Assembly (NCBI GenBank): GCA_013265495.1
Contig: MU057711.1
Span: 372,001 to 436,000 of the forward strand
DNA: 64,000 nucleotides
Direction: 5' to 3'
Source of the DNA: Vicugna vicugna
Taxonomy: Eukaryota
Made by a program: the position numbers and the translations under genes. Positions 5,498 through 13,569 of this stretch are shown here, piece after piece (positions within the stretch are counted from its first letter, which is position 1; each line of letters begins with the position of its first letter). A model generated the notes under the pieces. It was given only the letters and a program-made list of their open reading frames with translations. It had not been told where the DNA came from and did no database searches.

Positions 5498-5800
5498 AAG
5501 ATTGCTTTGGCAGTTTGGGGTCTTTTATGGTTTACATAAATTTTGGAATTGTTTGTTCTAGTTCTGTGAAAAATGCTGTGAGTATTTTGATACGGGTTGC
5601 ATTGGATCTGTGGATTGCTTTGAGTAGTACAGCCATTTTGATAGTGTTGATTCTTCTAATCCAAGAGCACAAGATATCTTTCCATTTCTTTGTATTATCT
5701 TCCATTTCCTTCATCAGTGTTTTATAGTTTTCAGAGTATAGGTAACCTCTTTGGTTAAGTTTATTTCTAGGTATTTTGTTCGTTTTGATGCAATGGAAAT
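5498..5800 (-). mobile_element. Inverted L1 ORF2 fragment (post-RT region)
   Basis: LYSENYKTLMKEMEDNTKKWKDILCSWIRRINTIKMAVLLKAIHR..FFTELEQTIPKF. Confidence 0.85.
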
Positions 5801-5858
5801 GTTTACACCAGTTATAAAATTCTAGTTTTGAAGTGGGAAAAAAAAAGGGAATGAAGGG

Positions 5859-6036
5859 CTGCAAATAGCAAAATAGCCTTCTTTCTTATGGGTGAGTTGC
5901 ATTCCATTACATATATATATGCTTCATCTTCTTTATCCATTCATCTATTGATGTGCACTTAGGATGCTTCTGTATCTTGGCAATTATAGATAATGCTACT
6001 TTTAATAGCTAGGTATATGTATCTTTTTGAATTAAT
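5859..6036 (-). mobile_element. Inverted L1 ORF2 C-terminal fragment
   Basis: gctgcaaat...cattccatt...catcttctttatccattcatctattgatg..cacttagg. Confidence 0.8.
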
Positions 6037-6082
6037 TCTTATTCTATGGTTAGCTTTATTCCTTTGATAACTATGTAAGTTT

Positions 6083-6099
6083 AAAAAGCTAAAGCTCTA
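6083..6099 (+). repeat. Left TSD of the NSUN6-L1 chimeric insertion
   Basis: aaaaagctaaagctcta, identical to 8544-8560; preceded by tt (L1 endonuclease TT/AAAA site). Confidence 0.95.
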
Positions 6100-6229
6100 G
6101 GGCTTTCTGCTGTGAAAGAGGGAGCGACTGTTTGGAAGTATGGCCTTCAGGCTGAGGTTGACTGAATTGATACCAGTGTGGTTTCCAGTACACGACAGAT
6201 CGCTTCTCATTCATTTTTTTCTCTGCAAC

Positions 6230-6462
6230 GTTTTATCTGCTTTAGGTAAACAAGAAGCGGAAATGAAGTTTGAAACTCTAAGTTGCTTGTCACACCCTCC
6301 ATCATTCACAGCTGTCAAAGTAAATACCCATTTAGCCTCAGTACAGTGTGTGAAAAATCTGTTATTTGATGAACTTCAGAAGCAGTTTAATGGATTAAGT
6401 TTTCCTGTTCTTCAACGTTCAGAGCTTCAGGATGTCTTACTTATTCCTGTCATTGGACCTAG
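6230..6462 (+). pseudogene. NSUN6: Processed partial retrocopy of NSUN6 (tRNA/mRNA m5C methyltransferase), approximately residues 26-103
   Basis: VLSALGKQEAEMKFETL-SCLSHPPSFTAVKVNTHLASVQCVKNLLFDELQKQFNGLSFPVLQRSELQDVLLIPVIGP vs recalled human IVTALGKQEAERKFETLLKHLSHPPSFTTVRVNTHLASVQHVKNLLLDELQKQFNGLSVPILQHPDLQDVLLIPVIGP; contiguous and intronless; no catalytic or PUA domain. Confidence 0.92.
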
Positions 6463-6932
6463 TTTTAAACTAGTTAGTTATGAGAACACTTCCCAGTGGA
6501 CATCTCCTGTGGAGGTACACTCAGCAACTCTTCTTCCCAGCTGAAGTACTCCAACCCTGCCTACCACACACCACAGCTCAGAAATGGGTCTAGAAGCCTC
6601 TTTTCTGACAACAAGGGAGCAGATCTGGCACCTGTCAGGGCTGTGACAACCACAGAACAAAAAAGAAGGCCCCACTCAACAACAACAATCACGGCAGGCT
6701 CTGATCACACCACCAGCCACACCCCCAATCAAAAGGATAACAGCCCACACAGGGAAGAAAGACATGGCAACCATCCATTCTAAGAACAGCCACTGCAACA
6801 AAGCTATTAGATGAACAGTCTACGCAAGAAAGGTCCCACTTTAAATAAAAACAAACAAACAAAAACCAGTCCTTCAAGACCACAGTAGATTACTGATACT
6901 CCTAAATCATAGAGCTGAGAAATATAAGTGAA

Positions 6933-7819
6933 ATGAAGATGCAGAGCAACCACTCCCAATTAAAGGAACAAGAGCAATCCTCTGGAAGAACGAACAATGA
7001 GATTGACCTCTACAATCTACTAGATCATGACTTCAAAAGAGAGATAAGAAGACTACTGAAGGAAATAATAGAGACTGTAAACAGCATCAGAGAATACTTT
7101 AAAAAGGAAATAGAAACTATAAAGAGGAGCCAGTTAAAAATGAAAAAACTTAATGGCTGAGACGATAGCCAAACTAAAGGCAGTCAAAAGGAGACCAGAT
7201 AATGCAGAGGAAAGAATAAGTAATTTAGAAGACAGGATAACAGAAGTCACCCAATCACAACAGCAGACAGAAAAGCAAGTAAAAACAATGAAGCAATATG
7301 AGGGACCTATGGGATAATATAAAGTGTGCCAACCTATGCATAATAGGAGTCCCAGAAGGAGAAGAAAGAGAAAAAGGAAATGAAAAGATATTTGAAGAAA
7401 TCATGACTGAAAACTTTCCAAGCTTAAAGAAGGAAATAGATATCCAAGCACAGGAAGCACAGAGGGTCCCAAACAAGAGGAACCCTTATAGACCTACACC
7501 AAGACATATTATAATTAAGATGGCCAAAGTTAAAGATAAAGAAATGATTCTAAAGGCAGCAAGAGAAAAACAGAGTTAGCTACAGGGGAACCCTCATAAG
7601 GCTCTCAGCTGATTTCTCTACGCAAACACTGCAGGCCAGAAGAAATTGGCAAGATATACTCAAAGTCTTGAATGAGAAAAACTGCAACCTAGGATACTCT
7701 ATCCAGCAAGACTATCCTTTAGAGTAGAAGGAGCGATAAAGAATTCCACAGAAGCAAAAACTGAAAGAATTCAGCAATGCTAAACCTATGCTAAAGAAGT
7801 GTTGAAAGGTCCACTCTAA
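6933..7819 (+). pseudogene. L1 ORF1p within the chimera, several frameshifts
   Basis: MKMQSNHSQLKEQEQS..; MRDLWDNIKCANLCIIGVPEGEEREKG..EEIMTENFPSLKKEIDIQAQEAQRVPNKRNPYRPTPRHIIIKM; ends ttgaaaggtccactctaa. Confidence 0.9.
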
Positions 7820-8543
7820 ATAGAAAAGAGGCAGGAAGACATAGAAATGAGAAAAGTGTAATTGGAAATGTGATAACTACAATGAGTTCCAAGAGAATAA
7901 ACATGAAGATGTAAAAAAAAAAAAAAAAAGACATCAAAATCCTAAACGGTGGTAAAGGGGAACAAGAAAATATAGATTGTTTTTCCTCTCACTTTTTTTT
8001 CTTTTTTCTCCTTTTTTTTTTTCCAGAATGTGTTTGAGCCTACATGACTACCAGTCTAAAGCAAACAGATATAGTAAGGGGCTAATATACTTGAAAAACA
8101 AGGTAACCACAAATCAAAAGCATATAACAGAGTCACAAAAGCCAAAAAGAAACCAAGCTAATACAAAAGAAATTTATCAAACCAGTAAAATACCATATGA
8201 TATCATTTAAATATGGAATCTAAAAAAAAAAAAGACAAACATTTACAAAACAGAAACAGACTCACAGACATAGAGAACAAACTTATGGTTACTAGGGGTG
8301 GGGAAGGAGGTGGGAAGGAATAAATTGGGAGTTTGAGATTTGTAGATACTAATTAATATATATATAATAGATAAACAACAAGTTCATACTGTTTAGCACA
8401 GGGAACTATATTCAATATCTTGTAGTAACCTGTGGAGAAAAAGAATATGAAAACAAATCTATGTAATTCATGTATGACTGAGCATTGTGCTGTACACCAG
8501 AAATTGATGCAACATTGTAAACTGACTATATTTCAATAATAAA

Positions 8544-8560
8544 AAAAAGCTAAAGCTCTA
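8544..8560 (+). repeat. Right TSD of the NSUN6-L1 chimeric insertion
   Basis: aaaaagctaaagctcta, identical to 6083-6099. Confidence 0.95.
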
Positions 8561-9447: not shown

Positions 9448-10818
9448 TGGTTCTTCCACCAAGATGAATAGATGTACTTATCTCTAGTCTCCTTTCAAAG
9501 TAGAGCTAAAGTCCCTGAACATTATATATAAAGCAAACACAAGAAGATGCAGAAACACTGAGTGAAGAAGGCAGACGGGTTAAGGACCTCTGGGCAACAT
9601 GATGATGGGTTCTCTTGTTTTCTTTTGACTTCATATATCCCAGACTTGGCAACCTGGAAATAATAATGGGTGCAGACCAAAAAAAAAAAAAAAATCCCAG
9701 CAAAGTCCTGGACAGGGGCAGCCTAGGAAGATAGGAAGCAGACAGTAACTGCTCTACTCCAGCGAAAAACCATGGAAAAAAATTATGGCCCTTATCCTCA
9801 CCCATGTCATCAAAGTCATGGAAGCCTAGAGGGGAGCCTAGACTTCTACCATCATGAGGCTGTACAGAGGTACCCCAACATTACCCCCAAAGAGGTGGTG
9901 TCAGGGAAGGCCAAGTAGGAATGTGGGACTTCACACCTGCTAGCAGGTAATGAGGCCAGCCTCTGTGGTGCCAATGGAGATCAAGTGGGAAACAAAGACT
10001 TGCACAACACCCAGCAGTTACACGGCTCCCCTCCCCTTCCCATTGGGAGGTAGCAAAGCAGGACTAGGGCAGAGCCAGGACTTTTACTGTAGCCCAGTGG
10101 TAATGAAGCTTCTCTGACAACAGTGTCAACGGAGACCATGTGGGGAGCTGGCACTCTCACTCCTGCTCAGCAGTAAGGAGGAGCCCTCAATGCACAGGTG
10201 TCAGTGGAGGCTGAAGGGAACCTGGACTTCTGCTCCCAGCTGGTAGTAACAAGGCACTGCCCCTACTCATCCTGAGAGAGCAGTGTCAGAAAAATCCAAC
10301 TGAAAAAAACTAAATAATATCCTGAAATCACTCATTATACCAAAAATCACTCATTATACCAAGAAGAACCAGAAAGATCTCAAACTGAATGAAAATACAA
10401 TCAACACATGTCAACACCAAAATGACAGAAAGTTTAGAATTAACTGACAAATATTTCAAAGCAGGCAGAGAAAAATGCCTCAATGAGCAAGTATTAATTC
10501 ATTATGAATTATGTAGTAAGAGAAACATTGAAAACATCAGCAAAGAAATAGAAAACATACAAAGCAGCTAAACGCAGCTTTTAGAACTGAAAAATGTGAG
10601 AACTAAAAAAGGCCCCTCAGTTTATGGGATCAAGGGCAGAATGAAGGGAACAGAGAATAAGTGAAGATAGAATAATAGAAAATGCCCAATCTAAACAATA
10701 GGGTGAAAATATTTGAACAGAGTCTCAGGGACCTATGAGAATATAATAAAAGATTTAACATTAGTGTCATCAGAGTCTCCAAAGGAGGGAGAAAAAATCT
10801 GGCTGAAAAAGTACCTGA
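9448..10818 (+). mobile_element. Old L1M 5'UTR (with internal repeats) and 5' ORF1
   Basis: caagatg start, repeated ggacttc..cagcagtaa..gagg units 9900-10270, ORF1-like agtctcagggacctatgag..cattagtgtcatcagagtc. Confidence 0.7.
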
Positions 10819-13569
10819 TAATTATTGATAGATATATATTTACTGCCATTTGAAAACTTGTTCTTCTGTTGATTTTGTATTTCATTTTTGTTCCTTTATT
10901 TTTTTGTTTTTCCTTTTTGTGATTTGATGGTTTTATTTTGTATTAAGCTTGTGTTTTCTTTTTTCTTTCTTCTTCTCTCTTTTTTTTTTTTTTGCGAGTC
11001 TATTGCACGTTTTTGACTTGTAGCTACCCTATTTTTCAAGTATGTTAACCCATTACTATAGATACTTGCTTTAGACTGGTAGTCATACAGGCTCAAAGAC
11101 CTTCTAAAAAAACTCTACATCTCCTTACTCTTCTCCCCAACATTTTGTGATTTTTAATGTCCTTTTTTACCTCTTCATGTTTAGCCTTTTGCTATTCATT
11201 GTAGTCATAATTACTTTCACAAATTTTTTTTGATTTTTTTTTTTAATCCATGTACTGGCTGATTTAAGTGATTTACTTTCCAATTGTGACTTTCTCTTTC
11301 CTATAGATTCTTGCTTCTTTTCTGTTTAGAGAAGACATTTCAATATTTCTTTTAGGGTAGGTTTAGTCTTGCTATATTCTTTTAGTTTTTGCTTGTTTGA
11401 GAAATTCTTTATCACTCTTTCTGTTCAAAAGAATAGACTTGCTGGGTAGAGCATACCAGGTTGAACATTTTTTCCCTTTCAGGACTTTGAATATATCTTG
11501 CCACACCTTTCTGGCCTGCAACATTTCTGTAGAGAAATCAGCTAATATTCTTATGGAGATGCCTTTGTAATTAACTCTTTGCTTTCCTCTTATTGCCTTT
11601 AGAATCTTCTCTTTATCTTTAACTTTGGCCCTTTTAATTATAATGTATCTTGGTGTAGGTCTGCTGGGTTCCTCTTGTTTGGGATCTTCTTTGCTTCCTG
11701 AACCCGGATATCTGTTTCCTTCTTTAGTTTTGGGAAGTTTTCAGTCATGATTTCTTCAAATACATTTTTGATACCCTTTTCTCTTTCTTCTCCTTCTGGG
11801 ACCCTATTCTGTATAGATTGGAATGCCTTTTACTATCCCAAAGGTCTCATACATTGCTTTCATTTTTAAAATTTGTCTTTCTGTTTGCTGGTCTGATTGG
11901 GTGGTTTCCATTATTCTGTCTTCCAGATTATTTATTCATTCTTCTGCATTACCTAGTTTGCTATTTATTGCCTTTAGCTCAGCTTTTGTCTCAGCAAATG
12001 CATTTTCTAATGTTAATTGCCCCCTCTTTACAGTTTCTAGTTCCTTTTTAGAGTAATGTGCATTCTACCAATAGCCTTTTAAAATTCTATCAGTATTTTC
12101 ACCACCTCCTTTTTGAACTCAGGATCTGATAGTCTGGATATGCTTGCTTCATAGTTTGTTCTTTCAGTAGAATTCTCTTGATCTTTTAATTGAGAGTGGT
12201 TCCTCCACTTCTTTGTTTTACTTATACTTCTCTATGAATTTAGGAAAAACAGTCATCTACTGTGATCACGAATGTCTCTTTTTATGTGGAATGTCCCTGT
12301 ATAGCTTCTGTGAGTTTAATATTTTTGTTGTGAAGGCTAGACACTGAGTATTCCTCCACAGAAGATTTCCACTGGTGCACTCTGTGGTGTTACTTGTCGT
12401 TGGTCATGTGGGGTCACAAAATACAGGTTTGGCATTGCCTTCAGCCCCACCTCAACCGTGGAAATTTAGGCAGTTGGCCCTGGTGCCCCTCAGTCACTGT
12501 GCTCACAAAGCCACTAGGGCAGGCCTGTTGGCACACAACTGCTGAGGTCAGGCACCAGGACTGCTGTCATCGTGCACCTGGACCTCCATGGGAGCTACCG
12601 AGTCAGCCCAGACCCCAGCCTCGCCTCTGAGTGCCTGCACCCGCAGAGCCAGCAGCCGCTACCTTGAGGCCACCCCAGCCACAGGAACACCAGTAACCTG
12701 CTCGGATGTCCCACAGACACTGAGTTTCCAAGTCACCTGTGGTGTTGTAAATCTGTGGATTGTGCAGCTGCTGGGACTCTCAGATTTCAGCCCTGCTTCT
12801 GAAGTTCTGGGCATCTGGGGATCAGCTCAGATTTCAGCCCCACCTCCGTGTGGTTGCAACACACTGGGGCTTCCTCACTCTCAGAACTTGTAGAGGAGGA
12901 GCTGCACCTACTGTGAGGACATCAAGAATGAAGCTGCTCTGGCAGGCCTGCCACTCCCTTTGAGCATGCAGGTTAATGATGGGGCTTCAATGGGGGACTT
13001 GGGCTCCTTCTTGTGCAGACTCCCAGTTGTGGCCCGGAGCACTCTCCAGCCCTTTCAGGCTGTCTCCACATAGCCAGCCCCAGTTCTCTCCCCAGGTCTG
13101 TCCTCTGAAGTCTGAGTTTCAGCATCCAGCTCCTGTGCCCACCAGCAGACATACATCTTGGGCTGGGGAATGCAGCAAGGTGGCACGGACTGTCTATGCT
13201 GGTCTCTCTTTGTTCTGCCTGCTGCAAACTGGCTGCTGCAGTCCCCTCTGCACTTCTGAAGCTCCCTTTCTGTCCCGGCTGATCTCTCCATTGATGAAAG
13301 TGCTTCCCAGAATGAGGGAACATTTCCTCTCTCACAGGTCCATCCCAGAAGCAGAGGTCCTGTCCTGATTTCTTTTTTTTTTCTCTTTTATCCTACCTGG
13401 TTATGCAGTGATCTTTCTTGCAATTTTGCAAGATGATTTACAAGAACTTCTGGCAGCATTCAGCAGGTATTCTGTGAGAACTGTTCCATATGTAGATGCA
13501 TTTTTAGTGTATTATTTGTGGGAGGAGGTGATCCTTCTATTCCATCATCTTTATCCACCCTTCCCTCCC
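10819..13569 (-). mobile_element. L1 5'UTR + ORF1 + inter-ORF spacer, truncated at the first codons of ORF2
   Basis: 5' end aagatgatggaatagaagg (reverse complement ~13535-13555); ORF1 ~11200-12240; spacer homologous to 8020-8185; ORF2 start atggcagtaaat at ~10850. Confidence 0.85.

Follow-up and report, generated by a model that had tools for sequence, protein, structure and literature searches.

An NSUN6/LINE-1 chimera in the vicugna genome with junctions at splice sites, present as eight retrocopies in three splice forms

The window analysed here is a 64,000-nucleotide (nt) stretch of the Vicugna vicugna genome (assembly GCA_013265495.1, contig MU057711.1, forward-strand positions 372,001 to 436,000). 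At window positions 6100-8548 it contains a 2.45-kb unit, a retrocopy that ends in poly(A) and lies between the two repeats of a 12-nt target-site duplication. The first repeat of the duplication, GCTAAAGCTCTA, lies at 6088-6099 with AAAAA just before it, and the identical 12-mer is found again at 8549-8560, directly past the poly(A). All parts of the unit, and both repeats, are read on the plus strand. The 5' portion derives from the host gene NSUN6: a copy of its 5' non-coding exon (the presumed first exon, 6100-6229) is followed by complete copies of the c.76-231 exon (6230-6382) and the c.232-311 exon (6383-6462). A linker of 19-24 nt (6463-6481, or to 6486, since the LINE-1 [L1] match begins at 6482 or at 6487) leads into the 3' part of an L1 5'UTR (6482-6932). 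Beyond this are a decayed L1 ORF1 that is broken across three frames (6933-7724), a polypyrimidine tract with an AG (7985-8026), a 160-nt spacer (8027-8186) and, directly abutting the spacer, an L1 3' end (8187-8548) that aligns to the 3' ends of other L1s and carries AATAAA at 8538-8543 and a short poly(A) at 8541-8548.

The NSUN6 assignment is also seen at the protein level. An open frame at 6116-6544 matches human NSUN6 structures (9imb, 5wwq; E 6e-34), with query residues 34-117 corresponding to chain residues 21-105, and the top NSUN6 protein matches are camelid sequences (87%). Two other L1 remnants in the neighbourhood were labelled by reading of frames: a minus-strand remnant with an ORF2-like frame upstream of the element (5532-5885), and an inverted L1 downstream (minus strand, approximately 10700-12100), whose frames are ORF1-like and which shares the spacer-type peptide motif.

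The genome's own 2.03 Gb were searched; BLAST alignments and a tblastn search with camelid NSUN6 (protein P0003) served to map the parental exons. The parent gene lies on the minus strand of contig C3565. Its 5' non-coding exon ends at 2078059 (GCGAC/GTGAGT, the slash marking the exon edge here and below), 228 nt upstream of the ATG exon (c.1-75; 2077831-2077723), which is bounded by ttttccag/ and AAGGAG/GTAGGT. The c.76-231 exon (2075596-2075441) lies between ttttcag/ and AAAAG/gttcat, and the c.232-311 exon (2071686-2071607) between ttttttaacag/ and CCTAG/gtttgt. The exon after c.311 starts at approximately 2066807, beyond an intron of about 4.8 kb. In agreement with this map, residues 25-77 and 77-104 of P0003 fall on the two captured coding exons, while residues 103-140 map about 4.8 kb beyond them.

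The copied segments follow these exon limits precisely. The 6100-6229 copy (71.5% identity to C3565:2078198-2078077, E 1e-15) stops at exactly the parental donor base of the 5' non-coding exon; the c.76 exon opens at 6230 (88% identity to C3565:2075596-2075441); the c.231/232 joint is found at 6382/6383; and 6462 is c.311, the final exon base, two bases into codon 104 (94% identity to C3565:2071686-2071607). The parental introns of 2.5 kb and 3.75 kb are missing at 6229/6230 and 6382/6383, both of which are exon-exon joints. A BLAST alignment of 6381-6466 to C3565 2071688-2071603 (94%) overruns c.311 as far as 6466 because the TTTT of the window equals the GTTT of the intron at three of four bases. 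Three boundaries coincide with splice sites to the base, and this is therefore not attributable to chance. A first-pass annotation of the window had placed the abrupt end of NSUN6 similarity at 6462 on an exon end, on the basis of human exon boundaries after c.75, c.231 and c.311. This genome's own NSUN6 has the same boundaries: both ends of 6230-6462 are exon boundaries, with AG before 6230 and GT after 6462 in the gene, where CCTAG/gtttgt marks the last base of the c.232-311 exon. The same annotation described the captured piece as exactly two complete exons, which is right for the coding exons and leaves out the third piece, the 5' non-coding exon at 6100-6229.

No copy contains the ATG exon, which in the gene lies between the 5' non-coding exon and the c.76 exon. 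Its absence reflects either skipping or the use of the upstream exon as an alternative first exon. As genome queries, the first-exon copy of the window and a CpG-rich version of it from another chimera (C1706) returned chimeras only, and the parent exon was recovered by local BLAST alone.

The chimera is present in eight copies, which fall into three splice forms. Type A comprises the copy in the window and five other full copies (C8000, C12268, C2289, C12035 and C7895) of approximately 2.4 kb each, with identities of 84.5-87.6% between C8000 and the other five. A 27-mer spanning the type A junction has six matches in the genome with up to three mismatches allowed, all of them in type A copies, and its control has none. 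The copies share no flanking sequence, and similarity between them sets in only with the unit itself. Target-site duplications surrounding the whole unit are readable in seven of the eight copies (the exception is C12330); that of the C1706 copy is 17 nt long with one mismatch, and several start within or after A-runs. In all eight copies the 3' end consists of AATAAA followed by an A-run, with poly(A) at the L1 end only, and all eight 5' ends fall within about 35 nt of each other in the first exon. In a tree with four non-chimeric relatives, the six type A copies form one clade (100/100) on a stem of approximately 0.03 substitutions per site, with terminal branches of 0.044-0.10 and a star-like arrangement inside the clade. 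At a generic mammalian neutral rate, these branch lengths translate into tens of millions of years. As judged from the tree and the common junction, the six full copies probably stem from one capture event.

Individual copies show features of their own. The C2289 copy (type A, 378917-381298, minus strand) is richer in GC than the other five full copies, with 56 CpGs where they have 8-15. Of its 89 private changes, 72 are AT-to-GC (33 A>G, 22 T>C, 10 A>C and 7 T>G), a pattern that looks like GC-biased gene conversion or long-term hypomethylation. ADAR editing was considered and rejected, since A>G and T>C are both in excess and both strands are therefore affected. In the C1706 copy (type C, 1711855-1712541), the exon-1-derived part has 12 CpGs in 139 nt, a GC content of 0.63 and a GC-rich flank, with 1-7 CpGs in the other copies. 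The C7895 copy (type A) has a 33-nt tandem duplication in its exon-1-derived part, near 891750. In an index of sequencing runs, 14 rows with five organism codes contain at least half of the sampled words of 5950-6560, and no RNA dataset is among those 14.

The two remaining copies join NSUN6 to L1 at other sites. Type B (C12330) contains all three NSUN6 exons as far as CCTAG and then continues with GATGTG, approximately 1.5 kb deeper in L1; it leaves NSUN6 at precisely the equivalent of 6462 (c.311), where the gene continues with GT. Type C (C1706) has the first exon and retains just the initial 16 nt of the c.76 exon, ending in TTTAG, before the same GATGTG. Its donor is a cryptic AG/GTAAAC inside the c.76 exon, seen in the window as TTTAG/GTAAAC at 6245/6246. 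The acceptor used by both of these forms corresponds to the tract at 7985-8026, where a pyrimidine run over 30 nt long leads up to CAG in the window (ttttttttttccag followed by AATGTG); in 14 of 17 non-chimeric relatives, the site reads ttcattctttttag followed by GATGTG. Across the three junctions, which involve two donors and two acceptor regions, each site that can be checked follows GT/AG. Given the exact parental exon ends, and the sister retrocopies with their GT donors and a polypyrimidine-AG acceptor in L1, the junctions are therefore spliceosomal and not template switches. That the spliceosome made the fusion, rather than random template switching, had been proposed in the first-pass annotation and is strongly supported by these data.

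As judged by sequence, the L1 partner is a member of an abundant, ORF1-only, HAL1-like family consisting of a 5'UTR, ORF1, the 160-nt spacer and the last ~360 nt of L1. ORF1 is recognized by Pfam as Transposase_22 (7292-7576, E 2.6e-19) and Tnp_22_dsRBD (7554-7724, 22.6 bits, cutoff 22.2); the match to the trimerisation domain is weak and falls under its cutoff. ORF2 is absent, as only 522 nt separate the start of the spacer from the poly(A). By comparison, in an L1 with RVT_1 ORFs on C9185, the counterparts of 6487-6687 (5'UTR) and 8184-8543 lie approximately 3 kb apart with the RVT_1 ORFs between them. A probe covering 8110-8270 spans the ORF2-less joint in 40 of 40 scored loci (33 of them non-chimeric) out of 1068 first-look candidates, and the spacer (8027-8186) was unmatched in two ORF2-bearing L1 loci. 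One non-chimeric, ORF2-less member with a full 5'UTR is located at C8245:1491376-1493414. The 5'UTR of such relatives reaches approximately 1 kb further upstream than the L1 part of the chimera. The first-pass annotation had proposed a cryptic acceptor in or just upstream of the L1 5'UTR; the L1 part in fact starts about 1 kb inside it. Because the partner has no ORF2, the enzymes for its mobilisation must have been supplied by other L1s.

The linker separates the exon end from the L1 homology by approximately 20 nt in all six full copies. All 30 L1-only genome matches begin at query positions 383-394, equivalent to 6482-6493 in the window, and in five of five non-chimeric relatives fetched, the homology boundary reads CCACAG/AGGGCAC, where the context of the AG is C/A-rich and not pyrimidine-rich. 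Under fuzzy matching, 6463-6481/6486 has no counterpart in 70 kb around NSUN6, including the intron after c.311. Local alignment of the linker to three L1 loci gave scores of 7-10, compared to a shuffled mean of 9.6. Allowing up to two mismatches, a 20-mer of the linker has 43 matches in the genome and its reversed control has 17. A variant of this 20-mer, TTTTAAACCAGTAAGTTTTG, recurs at eight loci (such as C2791:249134, C7314:2051584 and C8032:3362050) inside an unrelated interspersed repeat; we take this recurrence as chance because there is no flanking similarity to the chimera. No linker-bearing source element was returned by the genome search, though such an element would outscore ordinary L1 matches. 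By analogy, the linker may be the flank of a 5'-truncated source element, as in the human RAP1GDS1/L1PA2 chimera, which has one source, two copies and a cryptic acceptor 15 bp upstream of L1 according to the available text of its description (10.1101/2025.02.02.635956). A micro-exon or junction filler would be alternatives.

Substitutions shared by the copies bear on their immediate source. All seven copies that have both coding exons differ from the parent gene at the same seven of 236 sites. Four of these bases, in two codons, change Thr54 to Ala and Gln65-His66 to Gln-Cys, and both human and camelid NSUN6 retain Thr and His. One of the seven sites probably changed in the gene's own lineage, as the copies and human both have Thr there. 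The copies thus share amino-acid changes that the gene lacks, which suggests as their immediate source a hybrid locus that evolved free of constraint. Type A in addition shares changes that are absent from type B (two sites in six of six copies and one in five of six). In the 3' part of L1, type B has four of four and type C three of four of the bases that mark the type A lineage; these marker bases are also present in four of 21 non-chimeric relatives, and in a tree of this 514-nt part, which is poorly resolved, the eight copies do not form one clade (5 changes). Members C841:200760-201340, C4104:16545685-16546270, C10307:589925-590510 and C6191:27010-27590 have two to four of the four marker bases. 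They are 5'-truncated and therefore uninformative on the junction; they may be daughters of the chimeric lineage, in which case the family would have more than eight copies. Two points are difficult for a founder locus: type B needs a GT after c.311, but the six full copies read AG/TTTT, and no copy has sequence upstream of the NSUN6 start site, which leaves a founder promoter unaccounted for. At 6351-6353, three adjacent bases read GTG in place of ACA in seven of seven copies with the exon; this is one complex mutation, which produces His66Cys and removes an upstream ATG.

We favour spliceosomal junctions followed by L1-mediated retrocopying of the spliced hybrid RNA, a reading to which we assign a probability of roughly 85%. 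The hybrid RNA would start at the NSUN6 transcription start with the 5' non-coding exon, bypass the ATG exon and continue with the c.76-231 and c.232-311 exons. The c.311 donor would then be spliced to the linker of approximately 20 nt, followed by the ORF2-less L1, which would be entered about 1 kb into its 5'UTR and run as far as the L1 poly(A) signal. Proteins of L1 acting in trans would have inserted this RNA and two alternatively spliced forms of it at no fewer than eight places. Two further steps are less certain than this core: that an L1 downstream of the c.311 exon was joined to it by cis-splicing to give the first hybrid, and that a founder hybrid locus no longer present in the assembly, rather than today's NSUN6 itself, gave rise to the copies. 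The low identity of the first-exon copy to the parent (71.5%) speaks against the reading, and the lack of a source L1 or linker match at the NSUN6 locus speaks against the cis-splicing step.

The founder may itself have been mobile. On this tentative and rather doubtful extension, the hybrid would be a small self-sustaining family, in which an ORF1-only L1 minus the ~1 kb of promoter-bearing 5'UTR acquired a new 5' end, the NSUN6 first exon; founder copies would have been transcribed and re-mobilised, and both the splice forms and a donor-killing G>T at 6463 would have arisen within the family. If true, this would parallel SVA_F1 within the L1 lineage and document how L1-type elements replace their 5' ends.

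The position of the main-junction donor may also be read differently. If the donor were the GT four bases into the intron (GTTT/GTAACA), NSUN6 sequence would extend to 6466, the founder would have had an intact AG/GT that was re-spliced to give the C12330 form, and the G>T change at 6463 would have come later, in the type A lineage. A founder retrocopy and the C12330 form would then no longer be in conflict. Consistent with this, the TTTT at 6463-6466 equals the intronic GTTT at three of four bases, the BLAST alignment extends to 6466, and the six full copies do have extra shared changes that are missing in C12330. We nevertheless regard this reading as possible at best, since a three-base match is weak, T is found at 6463 in all six copies so that the G is unobserved, and past 6466 there is no resemblance to the intron (a comparison of the linker with the intron bases past GTTT shows poor likeness by eye).

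In this assembly, neither the 4.8-kb intron that follows c.311 nor the 23 kb beyond it contains an L1, and none lies elsewhere in the 70 kb of the NSUN6 locus. An intron without an L1 would be expected under trans-splicing, in which NSUN6 pre-mRNA is joined to the RNA of an unlinked ORF2-less L1; the spliceosome would still be involved, and no L1 need ever have been in the intron. We consider this unlikely, as the bypass of the ATG exon is common to all three splice forms, both forms with coding exons have the same derived substitutions, and the L1 marker bases occur in all three, which together point to one physical source. The intron is also short, whereas the available text of the preprint on human chimeras (10.1101/2025.02.02.635956) ties such events to long introns. 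Trans-splicing leaves the ~20-nt linker unexplained, and cis-splicing does so equally.

The eight copies might instead have been drawn directly and repeatedly from a functional NSUN6 with an intronic L1, with no founder and with later loss of the L1-bearing allele. The C12330 form would then be simple, a real donor being present, and the clustering of 5' ends at the gene start and the star-like tree of the six full copies would be accounted for. We think this improbable: seven of seven coding-exon copies have amino-acid changes at residues conserved between human and camelids and absent from today's gene, and it is unlikely that a functional allele with these changes existed and was then lost.

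Chimeric retrocopies of similar appearance are known to form by template switching of the L1 reverse transcriptase, here from L1 RNA to NSUN6 mRNA, as in U6/L1 chimeras. That origin is very improbable for this element, since nothing would direct a jump onto mature mRNA, with the next exon attached, to the final base of an exon, the three different junctions are GT/AG at all checkable sites, and the same junction is found in six copies with differing target-site duplications. Insertion of an L1 beside an old NSUN6 processed pseudogene, with spread of the compound by segmental duplication, can be dismissed almost entirely, given flanks that lack similarity right up to the unit, a copy-specific target-site duplication round the whole unit and poly(A) at the L1 end only.

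Spliceosomal capture followed by retrocopying has close counterparts in human. According to the available text of one preprint (10.1101/2025.02.02.635956), 17 human mRNA/L1 chimeras have first exons in sense; six end at splice donors, some have acceptors in L1, and most of the gene loci are without an intronic L1. The vicugna chimera resembles these in having sense first exons before L1, an end at a splice donor, and a target-site duplication and poly(A) round the unit; as in some of the human cases, an acceptor lies within L1 in types B and C (in others of the human set a cryptic one lies a few bases upstream), the junction includes a short unassignable sequence, and the intronic L1 is missing, as it often is in human. 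It differs from those described in that text in having eight copies in three splice forms (there one or two per event), in a partner without ORF2 (theirs are mostly >5 kb with both ORFs), in the bypass of an internal ATG exon and in its non-primate mammalian host. NSUN6, alpaca and camel have zero occurrences in the preprint, and a literature search on NSUN6 with LINE-1, retrocopy or chimeric gave no NSUN6 among the matches listed.

Exon-headed subfamilies are also described for SVA, namely SVA_F1 in human (MAST2 exon 1; PMC4859970) and STK40-SVA in chimpanzee (PMC6139936). As these papers present them, a non-autonomous, L1-mobilised element lost its own 5' part, gained a host first exon by splicing to an internal acceptor and then multiplied, as may be said of the vicugna chimera. 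The SVA families are young, with tens of members (94 for STK40), in contrast to the eight old, decayed, L1-derived copies with ORF1 found here (PMC4859970, PMC6139936). SpIREs, as described in the available text (PMC5860796), likewise are retrocopies that record splice sites used inside L1 RNA, here the L1-internal pyrimidine-AG acceptor; they are spliced within L1 RNA, whereas the donor of the chimera is in a host gene. The partner itself recalls HAL1, the 'half-L1' ORF1-only elements (Bao and Jurka 2010, as cited in PMC4859970), in having ORF1 and an L1 3' end without ORF2 and in forming a multi-copy family with the same internal joint, a likeness of architecture. Relative to HAL1 as outlined in that source, the chimeric copies have host exons in place of the front of the 5'UTR. 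The kind of element is thus already known from human mRNA/L1 chimeras and exon-headed SVAs; this member stands out for its unusually many copies, the three splice forms, the ORF1-only partner and the non-primate host.

The repeated gain of unrelated 5'UTRs and promoters by L1 lineages is a long-standing question. Capture of a host first exon by splicing has recently been proposed as a route to new L1 5' ends, and the NSUN6-L1 chimera is a natural example of it beyond primates. The parent gene, the three splice forms and the eight insertions are found together in one genome and provide an internal control. For the genome itself, a 5' fragment of a housekeeping tRNA methyltransferase gene, intron-poor, has been scattered as eight pseudo-exons, which annotators could take for NSUN6 paralogues.
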